Assembly: GCA_020435415.1 (NCBI GenBank) | Contig: JAGQZQ010000004.1 | Location: forward strand, 6,234 to 70,233 | Direction of reading: 5' to 3' | Length of the DNA stretch: 64,000 nucleotides | DNA from: Flavobacteriales bacterium | GTDB lineage: Bacteria; Bacteroidota; Bacteroidia; JACJYZ01 | In this document: positions 3,227 to 21,833 of the stretch, in pieces | Layout: every line of letters begins with the position of its first letter | How positions within the stretch are numbered: the stretch's first letter is position 1 | Position numbers and translations under genes: made by a program | Notes under the pieces: model-generated | What the model was told of the DNA's origin: nothing | What the model saw: the letters and a program-made list of their open reading frames with translations, nothing else | Databases searched by the model: none

Positions 3227-3229
3227 TAT

Positions 3230-4093: not shown

Positions 4094-4103
4094 GGAGCGC
4101 CCT

Positions 4104-5348
4104 ATGCTAAAAGCGTCTTCCCTCATATATGCACTGGCTGTGGCACTTCTGATTGCAGCACTCTCATCATCCTTTATCCTTTTATCGTACCTGTTCAATG
4201 TGCAGACCCTCCGGATGGATGAACGTGCACGGGAATCCCGCAATACATTGTCGGGCCTTTACCTGATGTTGGGTGAGGATGCGCCCGGACAGCAGGCAAC
4301 AGAGGTGGATTTGTATGGTGATGGCAGCGACAACATTTCTGTCCGGCGTTATCCGTGGGGGGTGTTTGAGGTTGCAGTAGCGCAGACACTCACCAGGAAT
4401 GTTGCAGAACGTGCAGTCCTCATGGGAAGAAAGCCCGGACCGGATAGTGATTATGCGCTGTACCTGAGCGACCGGAACCGGGCCTTGTCGGTTTGCGGGA
4501 AAACGTTGGTCAGGGGGAAAGCATACCTTCCCGAGGCCATGGTGAAACGAGCCTATATTGAAGGAAAGAGCTTCGATGGTCAACGGTTGATTGATGGGGT
4601 AACTTCCAAAAGTGATAAGGCCGTTAAGCCACCGGATACAGATGCGCTAGGTGAACTGGACCGTCAGATGACCGAGCGATTTTCGACGGAAGATAGCCTT
4701 TACATTTTTGCTGATAATCAACCTATATTAAACATGCATCAGTCATTCACGGCACCTCCCCGTGTCATTACAGGAACAAGCATCGTGGTAGGTGATGTGG
4801 ATTTGCTGGGGCACATCGTCATACAGGCAGACCGTAAGATATCGGTGTTAAGATCCGCACATTTGAAGCAGGTGTTGTTGATTGCGCCCATCATTGAAAT
4901 AGAATCCGGATTCAACGGTAGCTTACAGGCATTGGCAACCGAAGATATCATTGTGGGCGAAGATTGTCAGCTGGCATACCCGAGCGCACTGGTGCTGAGG
5001 TCACAAAAAACCGGAAAAGAATCATCTGAAGTCCGTATGGAAAAAAATGCGTCCGTGGGCGGTGTGATTTTTGTTATGCCCCGGGAACGCAACAGCCGGA
5101 CGTTGGTTGTTTTGGGAGAGGAAACCACTTTGACGGGACAGGTTTATGTGCAGGGAAATGCACAGGTTCAGGGTACGATTCATGGAAATCTCACCGTGGA
5201 TGAACTTATCCTGAAAACCCCTTCCTCAGTTTATCAGAACCATTTGCTGGATGCGGTAATTGACCGGGAATCACTTTCGGATTTTTATGTTGGCGCCGCA
5301 CTGTGGCCGGATGCTGCAGAAAAAAAATGGGTGCAATGGCTGGAATAA
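4104..5348 (+). CDS. Hypothetical pilus/T2SS-associated protein with an N-terminal pilin-like hydrophobic helix (possibly a GspK-like minor pseudopilin)
   Basis: The N-terminus is SLIYALAVALLIAALSSSFILLSYLF and the rest of the 414 aa is predicted periplasmic. The call rests on its position directly upstream of the pseudopilin genes. Confidence 0.35.
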   Translation: MLKASSLIYALAVALLIAALSSSFILLSYLFNVQTLRMDERARESRNTLSGLYLMLGEDAPGQQATEVDLYGDGSDNISVRRYPWGVFEVAVAQTLTRNVAERAVLMGRKPGPDSDYALYLSDRNRALSVCGKTLVRGKAYLPEAMVKRAYIEGKSFDGQRLIDGVTSKSDKAVKPPDTDALGELDRQMTERFSTEDSLYIFADNQPILNMHQSFTAPPRVITGTSIVVGDVDLLGHIVIQADRKISVLRSAHLKQVLLIAPIIEIESGFNGSLQALATEDIIVGEDCQLAYPSALVLRSQKTGKESSEVRMEKNASVGGVIFVMPRERNSRTLVVLGEETTLTGQVYVQGNAQVQGTIHGNLTVDELILKTPSSVYQNHLLDAVIDRESLSDFYVGAALWPDAAEKKWVQWLE

Positions 5349-5689
5349 GAGTTCATAAATTGAGTGCATCCACATTGCTGGAGACATTGATTGCTATGGT
5401 GATCGTAATGGGAACGTTCGGAGTGGGTATGATGATTTATACAAACGTGGTGCAGCGGGGTCAGAATGCCTCTGTTGTAAAAGCCCATGTGATGGTCAAG
5501 GATGCTGCTGCGGATGCATTGATGCACAAACGTTTCCTGGATGAGTCATGGAATGCGGACGGCTTGATGATCCGGAAAACGATCCGGGAAAGTCGCTGGA
5601 CAGGTGTGAAAGTTCTCGAGGTGAGTGCACTGGATGAAAGCCAGAAATCATTGGCAACTTATAAGGTATTGATCCATGCGAACCGCTGA
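5336..5689 (+). CDS. Pseudopilin (prepilin-type N-terminal domain protein)
   Basis: The N-terminus is KLSA|STLLETLIAMVIVMG: a hydrophobic helix with Glu at +5, but Ala rather than Gly at -1. ATG candidates lie at 5327 and 5336. It overlaps the upstream gene. Confidence 0.55.
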   Translation: MAGIRVHKLSASTLLETLIAMVIVMGTFGVGMMIYTNVVQRGQNASVVKAHVMVKDAAADALMHKRFLDESWNADGLMIRKTIRESRWTGVKVLEVSALDESQKSLATYKVLIHANR

Positions 5690-6188
5690 CAGGCTGCAGT
5701 CCTTTACCCTGATCGAACTGGTGGTGGTGATGATCATCACCGGCATTGTGGTTGCCACGGCGGCTACGGCACTTCGCATTACAGGCGAACGATTAGCCCA
5801 TTTGAAAGACAGCCGGGAGAAATGGCTGGAGGTATACCGGCTTGAAGGTGCCGTGCAGGGAGATGCGGACCGGTCCCTGGAGGTGCTGAGCGAGGTGGAT
5901 GGAGTCAGGTTAAAGCGAATGGTTGGTCCTGATATCGTATATCATATTCTAGCCAACGGGGTGGTTCGTGAAACCGGTCAGGTTACGGATACCTTTTATG
6001 TTGATATTTCAGAAAGAGAATCATACTATAATGGCAACACCATAACAACGAATGTATCGCCTATTGATGAGTGGAAATGGGAAGCGCAAATCGGCGAGAC
6101 GCCGGTATCATTTCGTTTTTATAAGATATATGCGGCAGACGAGAAAATGCGGCACGAAGCGATTCTGAATCACACACCCGGCAGATAA
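5676..6188 (+). CDS. Type IV pilin / T2SS pseudopilin
   Basis: It has a classic prepilin N-terminal motif, RLQS|FTLIELVVVMIITGIV, with Phe at +1 and Glu at +5; Ser at -1 is atypical. Confidence 0.65.
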   Translation: MRTADRLQSFTLIELVVVMIITGIVVATAATALRITGERLAHLKDSREKWLEVYRLEGAVQGDADRSLEVLSEVDGVRLKRMVGPDIVYHILANGVVRETGQVTDTFYVDISERESYYNGNTITTNVSPIDEWKWEAQIGETPVSFRFYKIYAADEKMRHEAILNHTPGR

Positions 6189-6197
6189 GCATGATCC

Positions 6198-7355
6198 ATG
6201 GCCATTGACCTGAAACAATACAAGGCATCAACTGTTAAGTCTGATAAGCGCACAACCGGAACAGCCGGATCGAAAGGCTTTATGGATTTCCTTAATAGGG
6301 ACATACAGCTCTTTGGAAGCGCGTTACCGGATAAGGATAAGGAAGCGTTTTATCATGAACTCGAGATTCTGATGGGTGCGGGTGTGGACATCAAATCGTG
6401 TTTGGATCATATTGAAAAAGAACAGAAGAAGAAAAAGGATCAGGTGCTGTTTGCCGATATCCGTGGTCGTGTGTTGAACGGGGAGACCCTTTCCGAAGCG
6501 ATCCGGAAGACAGGGAAGTTTTCACCCTATGAATATTACAGCTTGCAAATCGGTGAGGAATCAGGGAAGTTGCTGGAAGTGTTCCGCGAACTGGCGGGAT
6601 ATTTCAATGCAAGGATTCGGCAACGCAGACAGGTGATCAACGCTTTGTCATATCCCGCCATTGTCATGACGGTCGCCTTCGGTGCCATCTATTTTATGAT
6701 GCAGTTTATGGTACCCATGTTTGCGGATGTCTTTAAACGGTTCGGCGGTGATCTTCCACCCATAACCAAAATGATCGTTGACCTTTCCGCTTTTGTCCGT
6801 GCGTGGGGTGGCTGGCTGATGGTCGGCCTCGTGGGTTTGCTTATTGCAGGTTATTCACAACGAAAGAAGGATGGTTTTCGGAAAGTGCTATCGATGGTGG
6901 TGCTGCGTTTTCCTGTGGCGGGTCTGTTGGTTAAGAAAATATATGCGGCCAGGTTTTGCAGATCCATGGCCTTGCTGATGAGTGCCAATGTTCCGATGCT
7001 TCAGGCATTGGAGTTGGTGCGCAACATGATCGGTTATTATCCTATGGAAAAGAGCCTGGATCAAATCGGGAAGGAAGTGATGGAGGGAGGAACATTGCAT
7101 GAAGGCCTGGGTGCACATGACATTTTCCCTTCCAGATTAACAGCACTTGTTAAAGTAGCCGAGGAAGTGAATCAACTGGATGTCATATTCGAACAACTCG
7201 CGAAACAGTATGGGGAAGAGGTGGAATACCAGACGGGACTGCTTGGTAGTTTTGTGGAACCGCTGATGATCATCTTCCTCGGCCTTGTTGTGGGTGTTAT
7301 TCTCATTGCCATGTACCTGCCATTGTTCCAGCTCAGCACCGGCGTGATGCAATAG
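6198..7355 (+). CDS. gspF: Type II secretion system / type IV pilus platform protein GspF/PilC family
   Basis: 385 aa. It shows two GspF-type repeats and three TM segments (LSYPAIVMTVAFGAIYFMMQFMVPMFADVF, and a C-terminal EPLMIIFLGLVVGVILIAMYLPLFQL). This is a typical T2SS_F architecture. Confidence 0.75.
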   Translation: MAIDLKQYKASTVKSDKRTTGTAGSKGFMDFLNRDIQLFGSALPDKDKEAFYHELEILMGAGVDIKSCLDHIEKEQKKKKDQVLFADIRGRVLNGETLSEAIRKTGKFSPYEYYSLQIGEESGKLLEVFRELAGYFNARIRQRRQVINALSYPAIVMTVAFGAIYFMMQFMVPMFADVFKRFGGDLPPITKMIVDLSAFVRAWGGWLMVGLVGLLIAGYSQRKKDGFRKVLSMVVLRFPVAGLLVKKIYAARFCRSMALLMSANVPMLQALELVRNMIGYYPMEKSLDQIGKEVMEGGTLHEGLGAHDIFPSRLTALVKVAEEVNQLDVIFEQLAKQYGEEVEYQTGLLGSFVEPLMIIFLGLVVGVILIAMYLPLFQLSTGVMQ

Positions 7356-7824: not shown

Positions 7825-9849
7825 ATGAAGATGATCCGTAAAAAACAAAGGCTGACCGTAGTTGCTGTATTTATTGCACTGGTTGGTTGGCAGATGGTAC
7901 ACGCCCAGGATACGGTGGGTGTTGTGATTAGTATAACCGATACAACCCCTGACCCGTCTGCAATTCTGGATGTGATGTCAACAACAAAAGGAATGCTTAT
8001 TCCTCGTATGACAACCACGGAACGCGGCGCAGTTTCATCTCCTGCTGATGGTTTGATGGTTTATGATACGGATGAAAGTGCGGTGTATTTTTATAACGGT
8101 ACAACAACTGAATGGGCAAAGGTAGCAGGTGAATTATGGGAGCAGAGTGGAGGTGATATTTACTATACGGGAGGTAATTTCGGTTTGGGTACGGAGACCC
8201 CTGCCTATCGTTTAAGTATTGCGGGCAATTCGTCAATTGCGGACCGCACGATTGCTGTTAATGATACACCAATGGTCTATCTGGCAGCTCAGGGCAGTTC
8301 TCAATTGATAGGTTCGATCGCGTTTGGAAACGGTTTGAGAAGTCTGACTTCCGGATCAGGTAAGTATAACACGAGCGTTGGTATAGGTGCATTGTTTTCT
8401 ACCACCAGCGGTACCCAGAATACAGCTCTGGGTGCAAACAGCCTCCGCTCCAATACGGGCGGAAGTCAGAATACCGGTATCGGATACCAGACGCTTTACA
8501 CAAACACGACAGGTACCAATAACACCGGAATCGGCTATAATGCATTACAATCAAATACTACCGGAAGTTACAATACCGCGGTAGGTATCACTTCGTTAAA
8601 CTCAAATACCACAGGTAACGGCAATACCAGTTTGGGTTCTTTTTCATTGCGGTACAATACCACCGGAACATCTAATACGGGAATCGGTTCCAGTGCATTG
8701 TATAATAATACTACCGGAATTAATAATACCGCTGTGGGCGAAGAGGCCCTGAAAGCCAATACCACCGGCGGACAAAATACAGCGATCGGTGTGGATGCAT
8801 TGATCAACAATACCACCGGTTCCTATAACGTAGCGATCGGATCCTTCACGCTTAATGGAAATACTACTGGTAGTTTGAATGTGGGTATCGGTCCGCAGGC
8901 ATTGTATACCAATAGCACAGGAGTATCTAACTTTGCTAACGGAACCCAGGCATTGTATAGTAACACCACCGGTAACTATAATACGGCGGAAGGTTCATAT
9001 GTGTTATACACCAATACCACCGGCAGCAACAACACCGGCAACGGTTATCAATCGCTCAAAAACAGTACCACCGCGGGAAGTAATACAGGCATCGGTTTTC
9101 AGGCCGGACACGATATCACCACCGGTTCATACAATACCATCCTGGGGAATTTCCCCAGCACCTCTTCCAGCATCACCACCGGCTCGAACAATATCCTGAT
9201 CGGGAATGATGTACGCAACGGCCTTTCGGTGACCAGTTCGAACCAGCTGAACATCGGCAATCTGATCTATGGTACTGGTCTGGGTTCGGCCGGCAGTGTG
9301 CATAACATTCCGAGGGTGGGTATCAATACAGCGACACCGGACACGACTTTTTCCGTGAATGGAAGAGCCTCCATGCAGGGAGGCGGATCCTGGCTCACCT
9401 TCTCAGACAGAAGAGTGAAAAAAGATACAGCCTCATTCACAGACGGCATTGAAACGATCCGCCAGGTGCATCCCATGAAATACAAATACCGGGGCATCTA
9501 TGCGGACACCACCACGGAGTTTGTAGGTGTGATTGCTCAGGATATGCAGTCTGTGGCACCATACACGGTCAAATCACACAAGATCGAAGTGCGTGGCCGG
9601 GATGCCAACATGTTCCAGGAAAAGACCTACATCCGTACGGACAACATATATGTTCGTACGGATACATTGGTGGGGCCCAATGATAGCATCATTTTGCAAC
9701 CGGTACACAGACAGGAGCAGGTATATGAGGTGGATGCATTAAGTTATGATCAGAGTGCATTATTCTATGTTATGATCAATGCACTGAAACAGTTGGATGC
9801 GGAGAATGCAGAGTTGAGAAGCAGGATAGAAGCATTGGAGAACGAATAA
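7825..9849 (+). CDS. Tail-fibre-like surface protein with 17-aa NTxxG repeats and a C-terminal peptidase S74 (endosialidase-chaperone) intramolecular chaperone domain
   Basis: It has a signal peptide and about 16 tandem copies of NTxxGxxALxxNTTGxx. The C-terminus (SDRRVKKD...VHPMKYKYRG...FVGVIAQDMQSVAPYTV... coiled coil ENAELRSRIEALENE) matches the S74 autoproteolytic chaperone domain. Confidence 0.7.
   Translation: MKMIRKKQRLTVVAVFIALVGWQMVHAQDTVGVVISITDTTPDPSAILDVMSTTKGMLIPRMTTTERGAVSSPADGLMVYDTDESAVYFYNGTTTEWAKVAGELWEQSGGDIYYTGGNFGLGTETPAYRLSIAGNSSIADRTIAVNDTPMVYLAAQGSSQLIGSIAFGNGLRSLTSGSGKYNTSVGIGALFSTTSGTQNTALGANSLRSNTGGSQNTGIGYQTLYTNTTGTNNTGIGYNALQSNTTGSYNTAVGITSLNSNTTGNGNTSLGSFSLRYNTTGTSNTGIGSSALYNNTTGINNTAVGEEALKANTTGGQNTAIGVDALINNTTGSYNVAIGSFTLNGNTTGSLNVGIGPQALYTNSTGVSNFANGTQALYSNTTGNYNTAEGSYVLYTNTTGSNNTGNGYQSLKNSTTAGSNTGIGFQAGHDITTGSYNTILGNFPSTSSSITTGSNNILIGNDVRNGLSVTSSNQLNIGNLIYGTGLGSAGSVHNIPRVGINTATPDTTFSVNGRASMQGGGSWLTFSDRRVKKDTASFTDGIETIRQVHPMKYKYRGIYADTTTEFVGVIAQDMQSVAPYTVKSHKIEVRGRDANMFQEKTYIRTDNIYVRTDTLVGPNDSIILQPVHRQEQVYEVDALSYDQSALFYVMINALKQLDAENAELRSRIEALENE
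8371..9190 (+). repeat. Intragenic tandem repeat with a 51-nt (17-codon) period, about 16 copies
   Basis: The repeat units NTGIGYQTLYTNTTGTN / NTGIGYNALQSNTTGSY etc. are seen directly in the translation of 7825..9849. Confidence 0.8.
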
Positions 9850-9882: not shown

Positions 9883-12800
9883 ATGATGTTCCTTACCACC
9901 ATATACCAACGTTTCCTTATTTGTCTGGGATGTTTCTTCCTTCTGACAGGACCCGTGCAGGCACAGCTCAGTAATAATGGGGCGCGCATCAAATTGTATC
10001 ATGGCGTAAAGCTTCAGGTACATGGTGATGTTGTGAACAAGAAAAGCGGAGAGTTTGATCTCCGTGGTACACTTCGCCTGAAAGGAGATTGGACAAATAA
10101 TGCAGATAATCCTGGCTTTAGCGATCAAAGCGGAAATGGTGCCGTAGAATTTTTTGGTGGATACAAGCAGTATGTTACTGGAGTTACCCCGACGGAGTTT
10201 TATAAACTTCGTCTGGGAAAATCCGATAATGCCGTGGAAGCAGATACAACAATCACTATCATGGATAGTTTGTTGCTTTCCGGTGGTGTGCTGATCACTT
10301 CTGCTTCCAATTACCTGATCATGAATGATGACGCCGGTGCCACCGGAGGTAATGGCAGCAGTTTCGTGCAGGGGCCGATGAAAAAGATCGGCGACGAAGC
10401 ATTTACTTTTCCACTGGGAAGAAGAGATAGCTATCAACCGTTGGTCATCACCGCACCCGCTTCCGCCACCGATGCATACGTGGCAGAATATTTTGATTAT
10501 GAACAGGATCTCGGTTTTGAAAAGGATGATTCATTAAACTACCTAAGTACTTGTGAATTCTGGAATCTGAACCGGACATCCGGAAGTTCGGATGTGACCA
10601 TCACCCTCGGATGGAACACGAATAGTTGTGACATTTCCAAATCCTCTGATGTCAGAATCGCCTATTGGCAAGGAGATTCCATATGGGCCAACCTGGGCAT
10701 CGGATCAACTTCGGGAGATGCTGACAACGGTACGATCCAGTCACCCGCTGCAGTGACCGCGTTTGGCTCTTTCACTCTCGCCAGTGTGATCCCCACCACC
10801 AATCTGCAAAGTGCTTTTTGTGATATGGCGGGCCTCACACTCTCGGATACACTCCTTGCTGATACGGTCAGCGGTGTGACCAGTTATGAGTTCTACATTT
10901 TTGATAGCACAGGTTTTGCCAGGTATGTTGTTCGCGATGATGTGTCATTGCCGCTTTCACTGGTCAGCGGATTGAAGTACGGAAGTACATACCAGGTACA
11001 GGTCCGGGTTCTGGTAGGAGAAAAGCTGGGTGCATATGGTGATACCTGTGATATTATTTTTGATGAATTCGCTCCTACTTCATTAACGTCAACATGGTGT
11101 GATGTGGATGATGTCAGCATTGCCGATACCCTCCAGGCCCAGGTTGTGCCAGGCGCGAAAGGCTATGAGTTTCTTGTTGAAGATACAGCTACCGCAGCTA
11201 CTTACAGCAAAACCTATGTGCGTAACAGCAGGGATGGTAAGTTGCCCTTGATTGCTATGGACAGCCTGGAGTATGGTATCACCTATCGTGTGGCGGTTCG
11301 TTATTTTGTGGGTGAGGATACCATTACATGGGGAGATACCTGTCACATTGAACTCATTGATCATCCCCTCACCAAACTGCAAAGTGAATGGTGCCCCGCA
11401 AATGATCTGACACTGGCAGACACCGTGGAAGCAGAGATTGTGCCCGGTGCACTCCACTACCAGTTTTATTTTGAAGATACCGCCACCGGCGCCACATTTA
11501 CTGCCGAGTATACCAATGATACATACCGCCTCGCACTTGACGATGTGGATGGTCTGGAATATGGTGTCACATACCTGGTCACGGCAAAAAGTATTGTAGG
11601 GTTGGACACGTCCGCATACGGCGATACCTGCTACATCGGACTCGATATACATCCCATTACCAAACTTCAGGTGCAGTACTGTGACAGCTCCGGTATCAGT
11701 ATTGGTGATACGCTGCTGGCAGATATCGTAGCTGGCGCAGAGAAATACCAGTTCCATCTGTTCAAAGGTGGGGAGATCGATACCGTATACACCCGGGGCA
11801 ATACCGATGGAAAATTCCCGCTGTCCGATATTCATGCACTTTTATTCGATTCAACTTACAGCATTGCTGTCAGGACCATTGTCGGCACGGATACTTCTGC
11901 ATATGGAGATACATGTATGATAACCCTTCTTGATAGTGTGCCGGTAACAATACTTGACGAGAACGCATGCTATAATTACCAACTGGATTTTGACGATGAA
12001 GTTTATGCCGAACTGGTGCCTGGCGCCTCGGTTTATCAATTCAAAGTGGAGAATGCGGATTCAGCATATAGCGAGACCTATACAAGGGAAAATGCCGACG
12101 GTCTCCTCGACCTCAATGAACTGACGGATCTTGAATACAACGTGCTTTACGATGTCATTGTCCGGGCCGCCATCAATAACGATACCGCACAGTGGGGGGA
12201 TACCTGCCGGATCAAACTTCTGCCCAGGACCCAGCTCATCACGGATGACTGCGATAAGCTCATGAATCTCCAGGATAGCCTGGTGGCGGATACTGTTCCA
12301 CTTGGTACGGGGTATGAGTTTACTTTTATAGATGATACCACCAATTTCCGCTTGTCATATGTCATAGATGCAACACACGGGATTCTGGTGCTGGATAGTG
12401 TTGAAGGCCTCAGGTACAATAAGACCTACCAGGTGCTGGTGCGTACCATCGTGGAAAGTGACACAGCCAACTACGGTGACACCTGCTCCCTGATGCTGAT
12501 CGAGCAACCACTGACCAAATTGATCACGGAAGACTGCGATGTGACAGACTTTGTGATGAGCGATACCCTTGAGGCAGACCCCGTGGTCGGTGCCACTTCT
12601 TATGTATTCTTTTTTGAGGATACCAACTCGGTCGACACCACCGGCTATATCGGAAAAGTGGTGGTGGACAGCACGGATGCGGTGTTGCCCTTGCTGCAGG
12701 CCACGGGACTGGAATACGGTGCCACCTATTATGTGCGTGTCGCACCCATCGTAGGTAGTTATGAAGGCGAGTATGGCGATACCTGTCTGGTTACTTTTAT

Positions 12801-15800
12801 CGAACACCCGCTGACAAATATCAACGAGACATGGTGCGACGTGGAGGACATTACCCTGGCGGATACCCTGCAAGCCGAGGAAGTGGATGGTGCACATACC
12901 TATCAGTTCTTTGTCTGGGATACCGCTGCTGCAGGTACCTACACGGAAACTTTTTACCGGTACAGCTATGACGGACTTCTTCCTTTGCACGATCTCGACA
13001 GTGCCCGTTATGGAATAACCTATGGCGTGAAAGTGGCTACCGTGGTGGGAGCAGATACCTCCGCTTATGGCGATACCTGTTATTTCGGCCTGACCGATCT
13101 TCCCGTTACACAACTTACCGATTACTGGTGCGACTCCATCGGCGTATCCATGGCCGATACCCTGGAGGCGGAAGCCATCGGTGGCGCAAAGACTTACATT
13201 TTCTTCTTCGAGGATACGGTGACGGCCTCCGAATTTATGGTCTCCGATACCATTTTTGATGATACCCCCCGTATACCTTTGTTGGATGTACCCGGGCTGA
13301 AATATGCCACCACCTATGCCGTGAGCGTAAAGGCCGTGATCGGGGGAGATACAACCGCCTTCGGGGATACCTGTCTCGTAAGTATGTTCGATAGCATTCC
13401 GGTGACCAAGCTTCATGACAGTTTCTGTGATTCACTCAATATCTCGCGTGATGCCATCGTGTATTCGGATCTTGTTGTGGGTGCCGATCAATACCTGTTC
13501 ATGCTGGTGGATACCGCAGCGGATGATACGCTTTCTTATATAAGACCCTATGGAGATGGTAAACTGATCCTGGCCGATGTGGAAGGCCTTGCCAATCCTG
13601 TAACCTATGCTGTCAGGGTACGCGTGGTGATGGATGAAGATACGGCCCAGTTCGGTGGAACATGCTACCTTCGAACGGATACGGCCACGCAGTTGGCAGC
13701 ATTGTACTGCGATACCATGAATGCAGGTATTACAGATACCCTTTATGCAGACCTTCTTACCGGTGCCACTGCTTACGGATTTATCCTTGCGGATACCGCG
13801 TCCAGCTTCACCACCACCTGGTGGCGTGACGATACCGATGGCATGCTGCCGCTGGGTGAAGTGGATAGCCTTGAATACGGGACCGTGTACGAGGTTCGGG
13901 TGAGAGCCGTCCTGGGTGGTGATACCACATACTATGGCAGTACCTGTACAATATCTATCGAATCGCATCCCGTTACGAAATTATCAACCACATGGTGCGA
14001 TGCCACGGATGTCGAGATCGGAGATACGCTGCAGGTGGATACCATAGCAAAAGCAAGCGCCTACCTGTTTGCCATCGAGGATACGGTGACCGGGCAGGAG
14101 TTCAAAGCATTCCATATGCGTGATTCTTCCGATGGCAAGCTACCGCTTGTGGATGTGGAGGGATTGACTTACGGTCGTACCTACCTGGTCAGTGTGCAGT
14201 CGATTGTTGGTGAAGAAATCAGTGCCTGGGGCGACACCTGTGAGATAACGCTGATCGAACATCCCACAACCCAACTGAATATTTTTTGGTGCGATAGCAA
14301 TGATATTAGTCTGTCTGATACGTTGGCGGCTGATATTGTACCGGGCGCTTCGATCTATGAGTTCGTGATCGAGGATACGGTGACCGGTGCTACTTACACC
14401 CAAACGCATTTCCGCAACGATGCCGACGGATTGCTCATTCTGGCGGATGTGGATAGCATGACCTATGGCCATACGTACCGTGTGTTTATCCGGACATATG
14501 CCGGTGACGATACCTCCGCATACGGCGATACCTGCCATATCGGTATCATCGACCATCCGACAACACAATTGCAGGAGCAATGGTGCGATAGTTCAGGTGT
14601 TGCGCTGAATGATACGGTAACCGCTGATACGGTCGGAGCAGCCTGGCGCTATGAGTTCGCCATCATGGATTCCGCCACGGCCTTTGCCACCACCTATATG
14701 AATGATGACGGCAATCCATTGCTGTTCCTCGGAGAGGTGGACAGTCTCTTTTATAAAAAGACCTACCTCGTGGCGGTGCGCACTTATGTGGCCGGCGATA
14801 CTTCCGCCTGGGGTGATACATGTAAAATACGGACACCGGATGAGGTGCCGTCCACCACACTTACATCCACCGATTGCAGTAAACGCGACCTTTCACTGGA
14901 TAATGTGCTCTCGGTGGATGAGATCGCCGGGGCCACCCGCTACCTCTTCGAGCTCGAGGACTCGGCCACGGCGGAATTGTTCACTTACATCGACAGTGTC
15001 GGAGGCGGCCTCGTACTGGGTGACATCGAAGACCTCGGTTATGGCAACGCTTATGATGTGTATGTGAAGGTGGTCTCAGGTGCGGATACGTCCGATTGGG
15101 GTGCCGCATGCACCATCGCCATGCTGGCCGATATTCCGGTCACTTCGCTGGATGCAGAGGGTTGCTACGCCGTGAACCTGGATACCACCGATGCGGTCTA
15201 TGCCGAGCCGGTGACCGGTGCCACGGAATACGATTTTCATATTTACAATACAGACCTGGCCTTTGATGAACTGTATACGGATACCACGGGTGCAGGTATC
15301 CTGCCGCTGGATAGCGTTTCAGGCTGGTCTTACGGTTATTCTTACAATGTGGAAGTGCGTTCCCTTGTTGCCGGTGAGCTGTCTTCATACGGCGGAACAT
15401 GCCCCATTACGCTTCTGTCGGATACCACATGGCATTTGTTTACCTGGGCCTCTTCCGCCAACGTGAGTATTGTGGATGGTGACATTACAAAGTCGGGTAC
15501 GGATGGCGACTGGACGGATGCATACGCAATTTCTGAAGACTCCATCGACAGCGGTGGCGACGGCTATGCGGAATTCTCCATGACCACCGAAACGGATACA
15601 TATATTTTCGGTCTTTCACAATCCGGTGCACCTTACGATAGCCTGGATCATGCCATCCTGATCGACAGTGGTGAGGTGTTTGTGATGGAGGCCGGTATAA
15701 ACCTGGGCCTGATGGCCACAGCGGAAGCCGGCGATGTGCTGAGCATCGAACGCATAGGCAGTGAAGTGGTATACAGAAACAACGGAGAGGCATTTTACAA

Positions 15801-18800
15801 TTCTTATCCTAACACCGACCTGGTGCTTCACGTGCAAATTCATCTGTTCAATGATGGCGCTGAAGTGGGGGCGATCGGTGGGTATGAAACACCGGGTCCG
15901 GCATTCCCTCCATGCAACCTGGATATGAACTGGTCTTCTTCGCGGTTCTTCAACGGCTATGGAACCGGCCAGGGCAATGTGATCGCAGAATCGAAAAGTA
16001 TCAGCGATTATATGGGAAGACCCATTCAGGGGCTGGTTAAGAATATGACTGAGAATGTGGTACTGGCTGCCGAACCGATGTATGATGACCTGGGGCGTCG
16101 AGTGGGACAAACACTGCCGGCTCCGATCAACAGCAGCCATCTGTGCTACAAGCAAAAGTTCGTGGTAAACCCGGACGGAGGTAAGTACAATACGAATGAC
16201 TTCGACAATTCCGATGATCATATTGCCCAGGCGGGCACTTATGGTACGGTGAACAACCCGAGGGCCGTTCGGGGCAGTGCTTTTGATATTGGTACACTGG
16301 GGTGGTACTACAGCGATAACAACACCCTGGAGTCCCACGTGGATGTGAGCAGCTATCCGTATTCCCGGGTGGAATATGATGACAACAACCCGGGCCAGGT
16401 CAAACGGGTCTCGGCAGTAGGCGATGAGTTGCGAATGGGTAAGGGACGTGAAGGTGTGGCCTTCTCCATGCCCGCTTCCGGTGAATTGCACTATGTCTTC
16501 GGTTATGCCAACGGGTGGACCGTAGATTACTTCGATACCCACGGCACGCCGGTGGCCGGGAATTTCCAGGCAACCTACAAGGTGATGAAGCATATCTCCG
16601 TGGACCCGAACGGCATCGAAACGGTGAGCTTCACCGATTATGACGGCAAAATGGTGGCTGCCTGTCGCAGCGGCAGTGTGGATGGCGCCAACGTACGGAC
16701 ACAGAAAGTACAGGAGTCGTTCCAGAAAGGAAAGCGTTGCATCGACATTCACCTGCCGGAAGGTTGCGAGTCGTCGCTGGAGCTGACTTCCGGCCAGGAT
16801 CTTATCTACAACATCCTTGACCTGGAAACCGATGAGCTCGTGAAGGTCAACGGATCCGTGAACTTCAGCGGCGGAAAACCATACCTCGACCCCGGCTTCT
16901 ACCGCATCATTCATGTAACGGATTACAACGACTACAGCGGTGCGCTTCCGGTGACCTACAACCTGAACTACCACGACTTCACCGCTTACTATTATGACCG
17001 GGCCGGTCGTCTGTCCTCCATCATTCCGCCTATTGGCATCGATGATACTTATGACCCTAAATCCGTTGTGGTAAGCAAGCGGAAGAAAAGCGAAAGTTTT
17101 AATGCCGGCAGTGGTATGTGGGGAGTCAGCAACAAACAGGCTGCCGGTTTTACACTGGATCTTGCCACTGCCGTTGATCCGTCCGGAAGTTCGTTTGCCA
17201 ACCTGGTCGTGACCCTGTCCAAATCCAACGTGGTCATATCCGATCCGCAAAACCCCGGACTCACTTCCGGCAGGTTAGCCTTCGGCACGACCACGGTGAA
17301 TACAGTCCCTTCGGATGTGACCGGTTTCGGGGTTATAGATGAAGATGATCCGCTGGCCCAGGGACCTGATCCGGGATGTGATTGCGGTCCGGGTGCCTGG
17401 TGCTTCACCGGTAGTGAGGCGGCGGCCATCAGTGATGCGGAAAACAAATGTTCCCGCATGGGGGCATGGGGCAAAGAAGCCATTGCCATTGACCGTGGAA
17501 GTGGTGAGTGGTGCCTGGCCTGCGGTGCTGACAAACCCATACCGGAAGGGCCCAAGTATGAGATCGAGGTGGCGCTGTACTGCAATGATGCACAGGGTGC
17601 ACTTATCCGGGATGACCTCGTCTTTTACGCCTATCACCATGAAGGTAAAACACCCGAATGGACCTTCCGGAGTGATCCCAATAGCCTCGGTACCAACACC
17701 GCTGCCGTTGAATGGGCTGTCATCGATCAGGACCTGATGGAAACCACCACCCAGGTTTATGTAAAAGTGGTTTCTATGAAGGAGTTTGATTATACCATCG
17801 GTGGAAAACTTGAAACCTTCGACTACGATCTGCTGGACGGTATGAAACTGTCTCTGAATGCCTCGGTGCATAACATCCCCGGCCTGCCGCAACATGCCCA
17901 GGCCACGCATTTTGAGTACAATTCCCTGGGCCAGCAATTGTCTTCCGTGACACCCGATGAAGGGAAAACGGAATTCGTGTACCGGAGGGACGGACAGATC
18001 CGTTTCTCACAGGATGCCCGTCAGGCTTCTGAAGATAAGTTTACCTACTTCAGCTACGATCGTTTCGGCCGGTTGGTGGAGTCAGGTGAATATGAATCTC
18101 CTTCATCCGGTGCGGGTGTCTACTTCCAGAACCATCAGGGGGAACACAGTGCACCCGGAGGTTGCAGTCCGTGTACCGCCGCAACGGATGCCTCCGTGCT
18201 GGAAGTCCTTGACGGACTGAACGACAGCTACTGTTCCGAAGTGATCACCACAACTTTTGATGTGGCGGACGATGCCGGCATCGCATCTGTGAATACGGAA
18301 CTCGGAAGCACATACAGCCAACGCTACCTTCTGGGCAAGGTCTCCAAAACAGAAAAGGAAGGCCTGTCCACCACATGGTACAGCTATGATGAACAGGGCC
18401 GTGTGGAATGGACAGCCCAACAGGTGGAAGGCATGACAACTTCCGGTACCGGTCACAAATTGCTGACCACCAACTATACGTACAACCGCTCCGGAACGGT
18501 GAGCGAGGTGGAATACCAGCAGGAGAGCTCAGGTACGGACAACGAACGTTTCGTGCACCTCTATGAATACGATAAGGACAACCGCCTCAGCGAAGTGGCA
18601 TCCCGGCGCTATGACCAATATGGCGCCAGCCTGGGTGACCATGCGGAAGCGACCTATGCCTATTATGTGCACGGTCCGCTCAAACGCACCGAACTGGGCG
18701 GCGATGTCCAGGGCATCGACTATACCTACAACATCAACGGCTGGCTGAAAGCCATCAACCATCCTGATCTGGATGCCGGAAAAGACCCCGGGCGTGATGG

Positions 18801-21063
18801 CTACGGAGGTGAACACGCAGCTTTCGGAAAGGATGCTTTTGGTATGGCGCTGGATTATTACGACAACGACTACCAACGCAGCTACACCGATCTGGTCAGC
18901 GGCCTGAGCTCCGACGTCAGCTATTACAACGGCAACATCAAATCGCAACGCTGGCAGAATGCCTACGCCAGCGCTGCCCCGCCGACGGGTGAGCAGTGGA
19001 TGTACTCCTACAACTATGACCACCGCTACTGGATTACCGGCGCGGATTTCGGTACCTTTGATCAGGCGACCGAAATGAAAACAGGCACGGACAACTACAA
19101 GGTGTGGAACATCACCTACGACAAGAACGGCAACCTGCAAACCCTGAACCGCAACGGCTACGGAGGCACCCAAAGCATGGACGAGTTCACCTACCACTAC
19201 AATACCTTTGACCTGCATGGTCAGACCCGCACGGGCAACCGCTTGCAGAAGGTGGACGATCCGGTGACGGCAGGCAACTATTCCATGGACTATGATGACG
19301 AACATAGCGGTACAGACTATGTTTATAATGATATAGGCCAGCTGGCCGAAGACCTGGAAGAAGGACTTTACTATACCTACAACCTTGCCGGACAGGTGAC
19401 AGGTGTTTACAATGATGCCTCTCACACCTCCCCGAAGGTGACCTATGCATATGATGAAACGGGCTTCCGTATTCTGAAGACAGATCACAGCGGTCCGAAA
19501 TACACCTGGTATGCCCGTGATGCAAGCGGCAACACCCTGGCCATTTATGAACGTGACGGAGGTGATCTGGAACAAACGGAGATCTCGCTCTATGGTTCTG
19601 GCCGGTTGGGTATTTATGATGTAGGGCTTGAGGTGTATGTGTATGAACTGACGGACCACCTGGGCAATGTGCGGGTGACGGTGAGCGGCGAGAAACAGGA
19701 AGACGAGGAATTCTATTTTGAAGATTTTGAAGGGATTGATGAAGAAGCAGGCATTTGTGTGGATGGAACCTGGGCATCAGGTTCCGGTGTGACGGCGGAT
19801 CTGGTGGATGGCCCGGATGGTAAGCGCATGGATCTGGTCATCACTCCTGTGTTTGAAGGTATTCATTTCTCGATATCAACGGAAGTGGGTGAGGAGTATA
19901 TCATCCGCCTGGATGCGGACATGGTTTCCGGTGTCATTGGCATAGAACCACGCAAATGCGGCGCCTCCACGGATATCTTAGGTTACCATGCGATCACGGA
20001 TGGCGTGAATGAGATGACGTTTACCGCTCTGACCACGACCACACGCATCAAGTTCGTGAACTCATCGGCCAATCCATCGGAGGTCTATCTTGACAACCTG
20101 CTTATCACCGGCCCCGGCCTGGGTACCCAGGGTTACACGGCGGAGATCTTAAGCATTGCGGACTACTATCCCTTTGGCATGGTGATGCCGGGTGCCGAAC
20201 ACAGCTATGATAACGGTTACCGCTACACCTACCAGGGCCAGGAAGGGGAAGCGGAAAGTGGGGTGGAGATGGGAGCCTTCCAATACCGCGGTTTTGATAG
20301 CCGGTTGGGAAGATGGATGAACCCGGATCAGGCAAAGCAGTTTCATAGCCCGTATGTGGGGATGGGGAATGTGCCGATTGCGGGAGTTGACGGGGATGGA
20401 AGATATATTCATATAATTGGTGGGAATGAAGAACTACTATTGAATGCAATAAATTTATATAGTCAACTCCCAGGAGCTAATATAGGCAAATTAAGGGAGT
20501 ATATGACGAGTCCTACAAAGCATATCTATATTAAATTTGGTGTAATAGGAACTGCTGGAAGTACACTAAATTTACCAGTTGGAACAGAGGAACACTTTCG
20601 TACTGTTGGTGGATTTAATACAGAGATACGCAGTGATCAAGAGTATCACCTTATCAGAGTTAGTAGTAATTTTTTGGAGGAGAAAGATGCAAAGTATCAA
20701 GCTCTCCTTGTAACTTTTGTTTTGGCACATGAACTAGATGCCCATGTCTTCTCCAATTTCTGGGAAGATAGAAACAGAACGGTGGCTGAGACAGAGACGC
20801 TTGGGCATAATGCATATGGTAATCATGGAATAGCAAGATCACCTGATGGATATTTGTTAAAGGAAACCCGTGATTTGGCTACACTAACTGATGCTGGCTC
20901 GAAGGCTTACAATCAGCTTACACAATTGTTAACCTGGAATGCATCACCTGAACCTATTAGTAAAGTGATCTCAAAGCAGGTCCATTATGTCTTGGGGAAA
21001 ACGATATTGTTAACCCAGCCGAGAAGAATTGTTAAAGTTCAGAATTTACCTAAATATAGATAA
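9883..21063 (+). CDS. Giant secreted RHS/YD-repeat polymorphic toxin (3726 aa). Architecture: signal peptide; N-terminal domain; 16 tandem Cys-bracketed ~95-aa domains; YD/RHS repeat shell; RHS core; variable low-GC C-terminal toxin domain.
   Basis: YD repeats are present (YDRAGRLSSI, YDRFGRLVESGEY, YSYDEQGRVEW, YEYDKDNRLSEV, YTYNINGWLKAINHPD). An RHS core-like end reads DYYPFGMVMPG ... YRGFDSRLGRWMNPDQAKQFHSPYVGMGNVPIAGVDGDGRY. The final ~215 aa are encoded by AT-rich DNA. Confidence 0.85.
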   Translation: MMFLTTIYQRFLICLGCFFLLTGPVQAQLSNNGARIKLYHGVKLQVHGDVVNKKSGEFDLRGTLRLKGDWTNNADNPGFSDQSGNGAVEFFGGYKQYVTGVTPTEFYKLRLGKSDNAVEADTTITIMDSLLLSGGVLITSASNYLIMNDDAGATGGNGSSFVQGPMKKIGDEAFTFPLGRRDSYQPLVITAPASATDAYVAEYFDYEQDLGFEKDDSLNYLSTCEFWNLNRTSGSSDVTITLGWNTNSCDISKSSDVRIAYWQGDSIWANLGIGSTSGDADNGTIQSPAAVTAFGSFTLASVIPTTNLQSAFCDMAGLTLSDTLLADTVSGVTSYEFYIFDSTGFARYVVRDDVSLPLSLVSGLKYGSTYQVQVRVLVGEKLGAYGDTCDIIFDEFAPTSLTSTWCDVDDVSIADTLQAQVVPGAKGYEFLVEDTATAATYSKTYVRNSRDGKLPLIAMDSLEYGITYRVAVRYFVGEDTITWGDTCHIELIDHPLTKLQSEWCPANDLTLADTVEAEIVPGALHYQFYFEDTATGATFTAEYTNDTYRLALDDVDGLEYGVTYLVTAKSIVGLDTSAYGDTCYIGLDIHPITKLQVQYCDSSGISIGDTLLADIVAGAEKYQFHLFKGGEIDTVYTRGNTDGKFPLSDIHALLFDSTYSIAVRTIVGTDTSAYGDTCMITLLDSVPVTILDENACYNYQLDFDDEVYAELVPGASVYQFKVENADSAYSETYTRENADGLLDLNELTDLEYNVLYDVIVRAAINNDTAQWGDTCRIKLLPRTQLITDDCDKLMNLQDSLVADTVPLGTGYEFTFIDDTTNFRLSYVIDATHGILVLDSVEGLRYNKTYQVLVRTIVESDTANYGDTCSLMLIEQPLTKLITEDCDVTDFVMSDTLEADPVVGATSYVFFFEDTNSVDTTGYIGKVVVDSTDAVLPLLQATGLEYGATYYVRVAPIVGSYEGEYGDTCLVTFIEHPLTNINETWCDVEDITLADTLQAEEVDGAHTYQFFVWDTAAAGTYTETFYRYSYDGLLPLHDLDSARYGITYGVKVATVVGADTSAYGDTCYFGLTDLPVTQLTDYWCDSIGVSMADTLEAEAIGGAKTYIFFFEDTVTASEFMVSDTIFDDTPRIPLLDVPGLKYATTYAVSVKAVIGGDTTAFGDTCLVSMFDSIPVTKLHDSFCDSLNISRDAIVYSDLVVGADQYLFMLVDTAADDTLSYIRPYGDGKLILADVEGLANPVTYAVRVRVVMDEDTAQFGGTCYLRTDTATQLAALYCDTMNAGITDTLYADLLTGATAYGFILADTASSFTTTWWRDDTDGMLPLGEVDSLEYGTVYEVRVRAVLGGDTTYYGSTCTISIESHPVTKLSTTWCDATDVEIGDTLQVDTIAKASAYLFAIEDTVTGQEFKAFHMRDSSDGKLPLVDVEGLTYGRTYLVSVQSIVGEEISAWGDTCEITLIEHPTTQLNIFWCDSNDISLSDTLAADIVPGASIYEFVIEDTVTGATYTQTHFRNDADGLLILADVDSMTYGHTYRVFIRTYAGDDTSAYGDTCHIGIIDHPTTQLQEQWCDSSGVALNDTVTADTVGAAWRYEFAIMDSATAFATTYMNDDGNPLLFLGEVDSLFYKKTYLVAVRTYVAGDTSAWGDTCKIRTPDEVPSTTLTSTDCSKRDLSLDNVLSVDEIAGATRYLFELEDSATAELFTYIDSVGGGLVLGDIEDLGYGNAYDVYVKVVSGADTSDWGAACTIAMLADIPVTSLDAEGCYAVNLDTTDAVYAEPVTGATEYDFHIYNTDLAFDELYTDTTGAGILPLDSVSGWSYGYSYNVEVRSLVAGELSSYGGTCPITLLSDTTWHLFTWASSANVSIVDGDITKSGTDGDWTDAYAISEDSIDSGGDGYAEFSMTTETDTYIFGLSQSGAPYDSLDHAILIDSGEVFVMEAGINLGLMATAEAGDVLSIERIGSEVVYRNNGEAFYNSYPNTDLVLHVQIHLFNDGAEVGAIGGYETPGPAFPPCNLDMNWSSSRFFNGYGTGQGNVIAESKSISDYMGRPIQGLVKNMTENVVLAAEPMYDDLGRRVGQTLPAPINSSHLCYKQKFVVNPDGGKYNTNDFDNSDDHIAQAGTYGTVNNPRAVRGSAFDIGTLGWYYSDNNTLESHVDVSSYPYSRVEYDDNNPGQVKRVSAVGDELRMGKGREGVAFSMPASGELHYVFGYANGWTVDYFDTHGTPVAGNFQATYKVMKHISVDPNGIETVSFTDYDGKMVAACRSGSVDGANVRTQKVQESFQKGKRCIDIHLPEGCESSLELTSGQDLIYNILDLETDELVKVNGSVNFSGGKPYLDPGFYRIIHVTDYNDYSGALPVTYNLNYHDFTAYYYDRAGRLSSIIPPIGIDDTYDPKSVVVSKRKKSESFNAGSGMWGVSNKQAAGFTLDLATAVDPSGSSFANLVVTLSKSNVVISDPQNPGLTSGRLAFGTTTVNTVPSDVTGFGVIDEDDPLAQGPDPGCDCGPGAWCFTGSEAAAISDAENKCSRMGAWGKEAIAIDRGSGEWCLACGADKPIPEGPKYEIEVALYCNDAQGALIRDDLVFYAYHHEGKTPEWTFRSDPNSLGTNTAAVEWAVIDQDLMETTTQVYVKVVSMKEFDYTIGGKLETFDYDLLDGMKLSLNASVHNIPGLPQHAQATHFEYNSLGQQLSSVTPDEGKTEFVYRRDGQIRFSQDARQASEDKFTYFSYDRFGRLVESGEYESPSSGAGVYFQNHQGEHSAPGGCSPCTAATDASVLEVLDGLNDSYCSEVITTTFDVADDAGIASVNTELGSTYSQRYLLGKVSKTEKEGLSTTWYSYDEQGRVEWTAQQVEGMTTSGTGHKLLTTNYTYNRSGTVSEVEYQQESSGTDNERFVHLYEYDKDNRLSEVASRRYDQYGASLGDHAEATYAYYVHGPLKRTELGGDVQGIDYTYNINGWLKAINHPDLDAGKDPGRDGYGGEHAAFGKDAFGMALDYYDNDYQRSYTDLVSGLSSDVSYYNGNIKSQRWQNAYASAAPPTGEQWMYSYNYDHRYWITGADFGTFDQATEMKTGTDNYKVWNITYDKNGNLQTLNRNGYGGTQSMDEFTYHYNTFDLHGQTRTGNRLQKVDDPVTAGNYSMDYDDEHSGTDYVYNDIGQLAEDLEEGLYYTYNLAGQVTGVYNDASHTSPKVTYAYDETGFRILKTDHSGPKYTWYARDASGNTLAIYERDGGDLEQTEISLYGSGRLGIYDVGLEVYVYELTDHLGNVRVTVSGEKQEDEEFYFEDFEGIDEEAGICVDGTWASGSGVTADLVDGPDGKRMDLVITPVFEGIHFSISTEVGEEYIIRLDADMVSGVIGIEPRKCGASTDILGYHAITDGVNEMTFTALTTTTRIKFVNSSANPSEVYLDNLLITGPGLGTQGYTAEILSIADYYPFGMVMPGAEHSYDNGYRYTYQGQEGEAESGVEMGAFQYRGFDSRLGRWMNPDQAKQFHSPYVGMGNVPIAGVDGDGRYIHIIGGNEELLLNAINLYSQLPGANIGKLREYMTSPTKHIYIKFGVIGTAGSTLNLPVGTEEHFRTVGGFNTEIRSDQEYHLIRVSSNFLEEKDAKYQALLVTFVLAHELDAHVFSNFWEDRNRTVAETETLGHNAYGNHGIARSPDGYLLKETRDLATLTDAGSKAYNQLTQLLTWNASPEPISKVISKQVHYVLGKTILLTQPRRIVKVQNLPKYR
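10798..15420 (+). repeat. 16 diverged tandem coding repeats of about 285 nt, one domain each, with the pattern WCD...ADTL.A..V.GA..Y.F...DT......Y.....DG.LPL..VD.LEYG.TY.V.VR...G.DTSAYGDTC.I
   Basis: Read directly from the translation of 9883..21063. Every unit begins with a Cys (WCD / YCD / FCD) and ends with GDTC. Confidence 0.8.
20407..21063 (+). other. Variable C-terminal toxin (CT) module of the RHS protein, unassigned family
   Basis: It begins immediately after the RHS-core motif VDGDGRY. GC content drops abruptly at about 20400 and stays low through the next gene. It contains LAHELDAHVF, which is HExxxH and not the canonical HExxH. Confidence 0.6.
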
Positions 21064-21113
21064 ATAAAGATTTATTAATAATTGCTGTTAATGCAACCAT
21101 TTAATCGATAAGT

Positions 21114-21833
21114 ATGATGCGATATCTTTTGCTTTACATTATAATGCTCGGGGTACCATCGGTAAATTCAAATAATATTCAAAGACCATTTCCGCAGATG
21201 CCGGAACAGCAAACTTGTCTTTGTTATGTTTTTGTTCCACGAGCTGGTAGTGAGGATTTACTGAAAATAACAGAAATGCCCCTGTATTTGTCTAAAGAAC
21301 CTATGTTGTTGGGAGGGGATGTTTGGTATCCATTCCGTTTTGGAAATACTATAGAATTTAGATATGCACTAGATACTTCAGCTGTTTTGAGTGACTACAT
21401 TGATAGCATAGGTACAACCTACTTTCTTCGTCTTAATAATAATGTCGTTGAGTTTAGAGATGCTATTGGTGTACCTCCTGGTTTTACTGTTAACAGCCCT
21501 TTGCGCTTATTTGATTTTAATAATCCTGAACAGAAAACCGAACTTTTAGCAGTACCCTATCTTCGATATCATTTGCTTGAAAAGAATAGCATTATTTATG
21601 ATTATGCTTTGAAGGATACTTTGCATTTATACGATCTTAAAGGGTTTGAACAAGTGTATAAAAATAAGACAAATCATAGTGATAGTTCGAGCAATCAATA
21701 TTTAATAGGTCAAACTGCTGCATCAGTGGCACCATTGTTCGAAAAATTAGTTGTGGGTGAGAGGTATGGGGTGTTATATTTTGAATACACTTTTGATGGG
21801 GCAGTATATAGGTGTCAAAGTGCGAATCGTTAA
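21114..21833 (+). CDS. Candidate cognate immunity protein for the RHS C-terminal toxin (hypothetical, has a signal peptide)
   Basis: 239 aa, beginning 50 nt downstream of the toxin gene on the same strand. It shares the same low GC as the CT module. The N-terminus MMRYLLLYIIMLGVPSVNS looks like a signal peptide. Confidence 0.5.
   Translation: MMRYLLLYIIMLGVPSVNSNNIQRPFPQMPEQQTCLCYVFVPRAGSEDLLKITEMPLYLSKEPMLLGGDVWYPFRFGNTIEFRYALDTSAVLSDYIDSIGTTYFLRLNNNVVEFRDAIGVPPGFTVNSPLRLFDFNNPEQKTELLAVPYLRYHLLEKNSIIYDYALKDTLHLYDLKGFEQVYKNKTNHSDSSSNQYLIGQTAASVAPLFEKLVVGERYGVLYFEYTFDGAVYRCQSANR

Follow-up and report, generated by a model that had tools for sequence, protein, structure and literature searches.

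The 64,000-nucleotide stretch analysed in this work (referred to as the window) covers positions 6,234 to 70,233 of contig JAGQZQ010000004.1 from a metagenome-assembled genome (MAG) of a Flavobacteriales bacterium (assembly GCA_020435415.1). It contains a giant gene for an RHS-type polymorphic toxin, which is open in a single uninterrupted frame of 11.2 kb and encodes a product of 3,726 amino acids (aa). This product is the same as that of GenBank entry MCB0395300.1, listed as 'MAG: hypothetical protein [Flavobacteriales bacterium]'. A preliminary description of the window, made from the sequence alone, had drawn attention to 16 tandem cysteine-bracketed domains between the N-terminal domain and the YD-repeat shell of this protein. 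In the present analysis these domains were assigned to a cysteine-paired branch of the fibronectin type III (FN3) fold, their relatives were searched for among protein cluster representatives, and the rest of the protein was compared with other RHS toxins of Bacteroidota. The coordinates of all features are given in Table 1.

The array is directly visible in the protein sequence. The motif G-x-[TA]-C occurs in 16 copies located 93-100 aa apart, and the segment between aa 290 and 1870 contains exactly 32 cysteines, two per unit without exception. With the unit boundaries placed three residues past the second Cys, the array consists of 16 head-to-tail units of 87-100 aa each, and a profile made from them recovered 16 stretches in the window protein with a score of 1,678.8 bits. 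Alignment of the units by MAFFT gave 101 columns, with T, C, Y, F, L, Y, G and C as the invariant ones. The array had been placed at positions 10798-15420; the start was confirmed and the end was shifted three codons upstream, to 15411. The units had also been said to begin with W/Y/F-C-D and to end with GDTC, and these residues turned out to be common rather than universal: an aromatic residue precedes the first cysteine (Cys1) in 11/16 units, C-D is present in 12/16 and GDTC likewise in 12/16. Finally, the two cysteines of a unit do not lie at the domain edges, as the word bracketed implies, since Cys1 follows the conserved P-x-T-x-L motif, approximately 14 residues from the start of the structural unit, and the second cysteine (Cys2) lies approximately 3-4 residues from the end of the unit.

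The amino acid identity between units is 25-54 % (mean 38 %), instead of the 40-60 % originally estimated, and the codon-aligned DNA identity is 37-59 %. Tandem Repeats Finder (TRF) detected no DNA-level repeat signal in the array, and the similarity of two units is about the same whether they are neighbours (38.4 % identity) or lie far apart (38.1 %). The low identity, the lack of a TRF repeat and the equal distance of neighbours indicate that the array is old and diverged, in agreement with the preliminary description, and its origin through recent tandem duplication or an assembly artefact was rejected. Among 766 domain copies the closest relative of a given unit is another unit of the same protein in 15 of the 16 cases, therefore most of the array expansion must have occurred inside its own gene lineage. 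The array would thus have grown mostly by duplication within this lineage, followed by long divergence with the fold kept under selection. Units 5 and 16, separated by eleven positions, are mutual best matches within the protein; both begin with C-Y in place of C-D and contain the segment D-x-V-Y-A-E. This kinship, together with the best match of unit 16 outside its own protein, hints at an origin of the array from two types of unit, as far as can be read from the sequences.

The structure of unit 13 was modelled by AlphaFold2 with the 16 units as the alignment input. The model is an all-beta domain (pLDDT 91.6, pTM 0.84) in the form of a seven-strand beta-sandwich superimposable on solved FN3 domains, and its best 50 Foldseek matches in the PDB are FN3 domains or FN3-containing proteins (prob 1.00, TMq 0.52-0.68). 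Both the modelling and the structural search had been suggested in the preliminary description, which expected a beta-sandwich without considering FN3. Judged by this model the unit is a diverged FN3-type domain, and the fold is clear despite the response of the curated libraries. The Pfam fn3 model (PF00041) applied to the whole window protein reached 19.6 bits (E = 0.0011) versus the cut-off of 25, with no significant stretch, and applied to the individual units it gave no significant match (best E = 0.12). Other members of the family described below do pass the whole-protein fn3 cut-off (P0008 with 42.8 bits and P0019 with 46.7 bits). For the window units, the high-significance Pfam match named beforehand as the outcome that would remove the novelty was not obtained. 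The unit itself is named by neither Pfam nor NCBIfam, the sole report of the latter in the window protein being a YD repeat in the RHS part. In accordance with the preliminary description, the Pfam models of PKD, Big, HYR, SprB and cadherin domains gave no match with the whole protein (E <= 1) or with the individual units (E <= 10).

Sequence comparisons pointed weakly in the same direction. The best PDB profile matches are weak (E = 0.004-0.7), nearly all of them fall in FN3 or FN3-like cytokine-receptor domains, and they align on the E-F strand motif. A 50-copy alignment of the unit family compared by hhalign with the FN3con consensus gave 62 % probability (E = 7.6e-5) over 60 columns in the correct strand register, and the same comparison with fibronectin FN10 gave 13 % probability. 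A model of three consecutive units (12-14) was obtained with pLDDT 89.7 and pTM 0.72. The linker blocks scored 90-95 and the only softer regions were loops in the middle of the units, which fits defined inter-domain joints, to the extent that model confidence can be trusted. The tandem-FN3 matches of the three-unit model include part of GhpA, the grappling-hook protein of Aureispira (9flu_A, E = 1.3e-8), another very long fibre of beta-sandwich domains, with no sequence match to the unit profile.

The unit profile was also used, as had been proposed, in a database search, performed exhaustively by HMMER on 1.84 billion representatives of 50 % identity clusters. It matched 2,641 representatives at E <= 1e-3, 1,500 at E <= 1e-10 and 397 at E <= 1e-30, with 3-28 matched stretches per carrier, and the top match was MCB0395300.1 itself, which forms a singleton cluster. 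All the sources and genome loci for which a name was retrieved belong to Bacteroidota and comprise Flavobacterium caeni, Flavobacterium sp. DGU11, Flavobacterium sp. PLA-1-15, Crocinitomicaceae, Segetibacter and Bacteroidetes MAGs. The carriers are labelled in their sources as 'T9SS type A sorting domain-containing protein', 'C-terminal target protein' or 'hypothetical protein'. Word-indexed homologue searches, with either the whole array or the 50-copy family alignment, gave no matches. Since the exhaustive profile search matched thousands, these negative results reflect the word index and not the absence of relatives. By sequence similarity, the units are part of a large, currently unnamed, Bacteroidota-associated subfamily of the FN3 fold. 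The novelty of the domain implied by the preliminary description is not supported, in view of its FN3 fold and of a family of at least 2,641 clusters.

The state of the Cys pair was established in 750 full-length copies from 149 other representatives (the best 150 carriers minus the window protein). Both cysteines were present in 739 copies, neither in 8 and a single one in only 3 (Fisher's exact p = 7e-17), and in the 50-copy multi-protein alignment the two cysteines are the only invariant columns. Such a both-or-neither pattern is what a structural disulfide predicts. The Cys pair of each unit probably forms a disulfide after Sec export of the protein into the periplasm, and the earlier suggestion of one disulfide per unit gains support from these counts. 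The pattern is likewise in keeping with Sec export and folding under oxidising conditions.

The usual surroundings of the array were analysed in the best 150 carriers with an iterated profile of the C-terminal sorting domain (CTD) used by type IX secretion systems (T9SS), seeded from Pfam Por_Secre_tail matches. In 135/150 carriers the sequence terminates in a CTD, separated from the last unit by a median of 30 aa, and many of the remaining 15 end within approximately 45 aa past the last unit, as truncated sequences would. The heads located N-terminally to the arrays are diverse and include subtilase, PKD-like, FG-GAP propeller, LDL-receptor YWTD, MopE-like and other domains. This constant place between a variable head and the anchor signal, combined with the variable copy number, is best read as that of a generic spacer. 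A different function would be that of an adhesin or target-recognition region, which would carry the RHS toxin to its target by binding a protein or polysaccharide of a prey cell, a competitor cell or a substrate. FN3 domains are frequent ligand binders, adhesin-type arrays (SprB, PKD-like, LRR) occur in the RHS relatives of the window protein, and the mid-unit loop varies and has a lower model confidence, as could be the case for a binding loop under diversification. There is also a weak profile match to the surface glycan-binding protein BT_4661; however, the BT_4661 matches are not significant (E = 0.06-0.2). Moreover, the Cys-pair FN3 module stands behind very different heads and always beside the CTD, which argues for a generic, ligand-independent function, and the positions conserved in the family are the Cys pair, tyrosines and alternating hydrophobics, with no surface patch. 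A mainly adhesive role of the array is considered unlikely, if worth keeping in mind.

The part of the protein downstream of the array was compared with other RHS proteins. It has 106 relatives at E <= 1e-10 (best 4e-255, identity 27-42 %), many of them named RHS repeat-associated protein and annotated with PF05593, PF20041 or PF25023; DUF6443 is precomputed for many of them as well. The YD-repeat model TIGR01643 scored 23.4 bits in the window protein versus the cut-off of 15.8, and eleven YD-like motifs are present between aa 2067 and 3448. No match at E <= 1 was obtained in the window protein for Pfam RHS_repeat or for the NCBIfam core models. In an alignment with six relatives the core was conserved through aa 3507, the mean column identity dropping from 0.68 in aa 3430-3507 to 0.32 in aa 3508-3600. 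The RHS identity of the protein, judged from these similarities, is solid, and the array indeed lies between the N-terminal region and a genuine RHS shell. A phmmer search of the PDB with the RHS part returned one match. The core terminus (aa 3502-3507, 20386..20403) reads VDGDGR, as compared to VDPDGG in the six aligned relatives: Pro is replaced by Gly and the final Gly by Arg, and both Asp residues are retained. In several RHS relatives the alignment stops at window aa ~3267-3282, whereas in P0153, P0161 and P0189 it continues to ~3506-3508; the region aa ~3275-3400 (~19705..20082) seems to be a variable insert towards the shell end.

The presumed toxin tip gave no Pfam match at E <= 10. 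In the NCBIfam search, one of the two small open reading frames (ORFs) downstream, of 239 and 151 aa, gave nothing and the other a biologically irrelevant match of 14.6 bits versus the cut-off of 35. The GC content falls from 0.53-0.54 (14-20 kb) to 0.40 across the tip and the two small ORFs (20001..22000), as it would in a swapped-in toxin/immunity cassette, which this compositional change resembles.

The module following the array, with no Pfam match at E <= 10, is situated directly after the signal peptide in several RHS relatives (from aa 29 in P0173 and from aa 28 in P0151). The N-termini of the RHS relatives are modular and carry SprB, PKD-like, Ig_7 or LRR repeats. The RHS chassis would be composed, in order, of the post-signal module, a DUF6443-like plug, the YD shell, the core and the polymorphic tip.

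The N-terminal region of the window protein (aa 1-305) matched nothing in Pfam (E <= 10) or NCBIfam (E <= 0.1). A part of it, the pre-array module, is 39-41 % identical to modules located N-terminally to the arrays in P0106 (aa 914-1101) and P0148 (aa 595-746); the module in P0106, a protein with a T9SS CTD, ends approximately 10 aa before the best-scoring unit. Judged from these alignments, it could represent another unnamed domain that accompanies the array. Given the shared pre-array module on one side and the RHS-type post-array module on the other, the simplest reading is that a cassette composed of the pre-array module (~190 aa) and the array was placed before a standard Bacteroidota RHS toxin. 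The identity of the protein as a TANFOR toxin was considered and rejected, as TIGR02542, assumed to be part of the NCBIfam release searched, gave no match with the whole protein at E <= 1 or with aa 1-305 at E <= 0.1.

The Cys-pair unit was found in 0/106 RHS relatives and RHS homology in 0/149 of the other top unit carriers, and no orthologue of the whole protein was detected in scans of species genomes and metagenomes, hence the fusion is a singleton. Such a record could be explained by a fusion of non-biological origin, i.e. a chimera of a T9SS-cargo-type gene and an RHS gene created during MAG assembly, or by a decaying gene. The protein is known from a single MAG, no second example of the fusion was found starting from either side, and the contig index has no gene with exactly this product on record. 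The sequence itself speaks against such explanations: the 11.2 kb are open in a single frame, the units are too diverged in DNA (at most 59 % identity, no TRF match) for repeat-driven misassembly, and the GC content changes gradually across the junction at ~nt 15400 (from 0.51 to 0.53). In addition, the junction falls exactly on a domain boundary, the next module being that with which the RHS relatives start, and the position-specific conservation across all 16 units argues against decay. An artefactual or decaying fusion is thus regarded as very improbable.

We consider it reasonably probable that the array is an extended, disulfide-stabilised FN3 spacer, which separates the N-terminal region from the RHS cage. 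It would act as a semi-rigid element stabilised by oxidation. The length of an FN3 domain is approximately 3.5 nm. If fully extended, the 16 units could span up to ~55 nm, and the RHS cage, presumably displayed at the surface, might be held tens of nanometres from the cell, as the preliminary description proposed. The usual place of the family beside the T9SS anchor and the confident linkers of the three-unit model are in line with a spacer role. Several observations weigh against this assignment. The window protein, a singleton from a MAG, has no orthologue showing that the fusion has been maintained. Neither an anchor nor an export signal was recognised: a CTD and a TANFOR domain are both missing, and no curated match was obtained for the N-terminal 305 aa. 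The polarity is reversed in comparison with the family norm, so that the C-terminal end of the array faces the payload and not the anchor. The rigidity is deduced from AlphaFold confidence and a shallow alignment derived from the protein itself, and the predicted arrangement of the three units is unlike any solved FN3 tandem (global TMq 0.23-0.37). A role in target binding may also exist for some of the units.

The manner of export gives rise to another explanation, in which the pre-array module and the array constitute an export or handling device, linked to the T9SS or to another outer-membrane route, or a scaffold for periplasmic folding. The unit family is nearly confined to T9SS cargo (135/150 best carriers), and the window protein needs a route across the outer membrane for which no classical signal was found by Pfam or the CTD profile. 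A hidden CTD was rejected, since the iterated profile that detected it in the 135 carriers gave no match in the window protein. For the TANFOR toxins of Bacteroidetes, which unite Fn3 repeats and a C-terminal toxin with a Sec signal and an N-terminal domain, export by the T9SS in spite of a missing CTD has been hypothesised by their authors (PMC7073777). On the other hand, no experiment is known to tie FN3 repeats to recognition by the T9SS, the known signal being the CTD (PMC7073777). The 106 RHS relatives have other arrays or none and do without the Cys-pair unit, which must therefore be dispensable for RHS export in general. A pilus- or type II secretion system (T2SS)-like cluster lies upstream, and a part of it in the export of the toxin would be speculative. 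An export function of the cassette appears improbable. Equally doubtful, and more far-reaching, is the idea that the Cys-pair FN3 domain is a dedicated 'stalk' module of the Bacteroidota surface and that its presence, together with the pre-array module, at the N-terminus of a CTD-less RHS toxin reveals a second way of mounting very large cargo on the outer surface, directed from the N-terminus and possibly dependent on the T9SS, as hypothesised for the TANFOR toxins. If true, N-terminal mounting would yield a 'toxin on a pole' of ~50 nm that serves contact-dependent killing.

Table 1. Features of the giant RHS gene and of its neighbourhood in the window (nucleotide positions of the window)
Feature	Position	Strand	Description
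Pilus- or T2SS-like cluster	18..7355	+
Pseudopilin-type N-terminal methylation motif	5676..6188	+
T2SSF/PilC platform protein	6198..7355	+
Peptidase_S74 ORF	7825..9849	+	674 aa
RHS-type polymorphic toxin gene	9883..21063	+	3,726 aa
Sec signal peptide, probable	9883..9966	+	aa 1-28 MMFLTTIYQRFLICLGCFFLLTGPVQAQ; assigned by reading the sequence
N-terminal region	9967..10797	+	aa 29-305; no curated family; not TANFOR
Pre-array module	10216..10791	+	aa 112-303; similarity to two other array carriers
Array of 16 tandem Cys-pair FN3-like units	10798..15411	+	aa 306-1843
Unit 1	10798..11058	+	aa 306-392; short N-terminal linker
Unit 2	11059..11352	+	aa 393-490
Unit 3	11353..11640	+	aa 491-586
Unit 4	11641..11925	+	aa 587-681
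Unit 5	11926..12216	+	aa 682-778; C-Y in place of C-D; closest to unit 16
Unit 6	12217..12495	+	aa 779-871
Unit 7	12496..12795	+	aa 872-971
Unit 8	12796..13089	+	aa 972-1069
Unit 9	13090..13383	+	aa 1070-1167
Unit 10	13384..13674	+	aa 1168-1264
Unit 11	13675..13956	+	aa 1265-1358
Unit 12	13957..14250	+	aa 1359-1456; in three-unit model
Unit 13	14251..14544	+	aa 1457-1554; single-unit model, pLDDT 91.6
Unit 14	14545..14832	+	aa 1555-1650; in three-unit model
Unit 15	14833..15120	+	aa 1651-1746
Unit 16	15121..15411	+	aa 1747-1843; only unit best-matched outside own protein
Post-array module	15415..15882	+	aa ~1845-2000; conserved in RHS relatives
RHS/YD-repeat shell including core	15892..20403	+	aa ~2004-3507
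DUF6443 match, weak	16006..16191	+	aa 2042-2103; 18.5 bits vs cut-off of 27.8
RHS-associated core	20155..20403	+	aa 3425-3507; YYPFG...YRYTYQGQ...LGRWMNPD...HSPYVGMGN...VDGDGR
Polymorphic C-terminal tip, presumed toxin	20404..21060	+	aa 3508-3726; 219 aa; no family match
Candidate immunity gene, by position only	21114..21833	+	239 aa; no family match
Candidate immunity gene, by position only	21966..22421	+	151 aa; no significant family match
Large downstream ORF	22428..27494	+	1,688 aa

The ORF preceding the toxin gene ends 34 nt before the RHS start codon and may be co-transcribed with it. In its product, aa 527-582 match the intramolecular chaperone domain Peptidase_S74 (E = 6e-10), a self-cleaving module of trimeric fibre and tail-spike proteins. 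Further upstream lies a same-strand cluster which, apart from the pseudopilin-type motif and the T2SSF/PilC platform protein, comprises at least five ORFs with no Pfam match; its gene content suggests a locus of the type IV pilus or T2SS kind beside the giant toxin. Past the RHS gene and the two small ORFs a further large ORF begins, the product of which has a hydrophobic N-terminus, a weak CBM_4_9 match (21.9 bits) and one YD repeat at the extreme C-terminus (TIGR01643, 20 bits), and no sequence relative in the PDB. It was considered as a paralogue or a second array carrier and rejected, having no significant similarity to the giant RHS protein.

The family to which the units belong, of at least 2,641 clusters and present in T9SS cargo of Flavobacterium and its relatives, has no name of its own, and the window units would be useful as a seed for a named domain family. 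A dedicated profile should improve the annotation of large Bacteroidota surface proteins by marking where the spacer ends and the functional head starts. An invariant disulfide in an FN3-type module, if it is formed as predicted, would be a simple means of stabilising the domain, mechanically or chemically, in the extracellular environment. With the window protein, the set of N-terminal extensions interchanged among the RHS proteins of Bacteroidota grows by one type of module.

The unit resembles FN3 (PF00041) in the E-F motif G-L-x-x-x-T-x-Y-x-V-x-V-R-A, which aligns with FN3 consensus sequences, and in the formation of tandem arrays of domains with the N- and C-termini at opposite poles. It differs not only in the score of the window units under the Pfam cut-off but also in the invariant Cys pair, absent from the two canonical FN3 sequences compared, in the non-aromatic position that faces the FN3 B-strand Trp column in the hhalign comparison, and in the conserved linkers with the P-x-T-x-L motif; all organism names retrieved for the family are Bacteroidota.

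The TANFOR toxins are likewise large and come from Bacteroidetes. They combine a Sec signal and a domain without catalytic function at the N-terminus with a toxin of polymorphic type at the C-terminus; Fn3 repeats are frequent in them, and immunity genes follow the toxin. Their description mentions no CTD, and the T9SS route was put forward as a hypothesis (Jana, Salomon & Bosis 2020, PMC7073777). The window protein resembles them in overall design, with a probable Sec signal, an N-terminal region, Fn3-type repeats and a presumed C-terminal toxin, also with no CTD. In contrast to the TANFOR toxins, it has no TIGR02542 domain, its toxin is located inside an RHS/YD shell, and its repeats belong to the Cys-pair subfamily.

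With the Bacteroidota RHS proteins the window protein shares the homologous shell, core and pre-shell module (27-42 % identity) and the polymorphic tip. Many of them possess N-terminal extensions made of repeated beta-rich modules as well, estimated at up to ~1,430 aa, but theirs are of the SprB, K319L-like PKD, Ig_7 or LRR type and in none of the 106 is the Cys-pair unit used. The extension of ~1,840 aa in the window protein is the longest seen.

The tandem domain family and the Cys pair are common to the window protein and to T9SS cargo of the 'head - Cys-pair FN3 array - CTD' type, represented by WP_341695427.1 of Flavobacterium sp. DGU11, a protein with the T9SS type A sorting domain label, and the pre-array module is shared with two of the carriers. 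The cargo proteins end in a Por_Secre_tail domain that abuts the array, whereas in the window protein the array is followed by an RHS toxin of ~1,880 aa and no CTD. Teneurins are eukaryotic YD-shell proteins with EGF repeats, by which the shell is extended from the membrane, and a transmembrane anchor. The window protein is similar to them in that a long run of small disulfide-bonded extracellular modules, as its own units are predicted to be, precedes the YD shell, and it is unlike them as regards the EGF repeats and the transmembrane anchor. The window protein belongs to the RHS family of Bacteroidota, in which its N-terminal extension is unusual, and the combination of an RHS architecture with a Cys-pair FN3 array, mildly interesting although unsurprising to a specialist, is unique so far.

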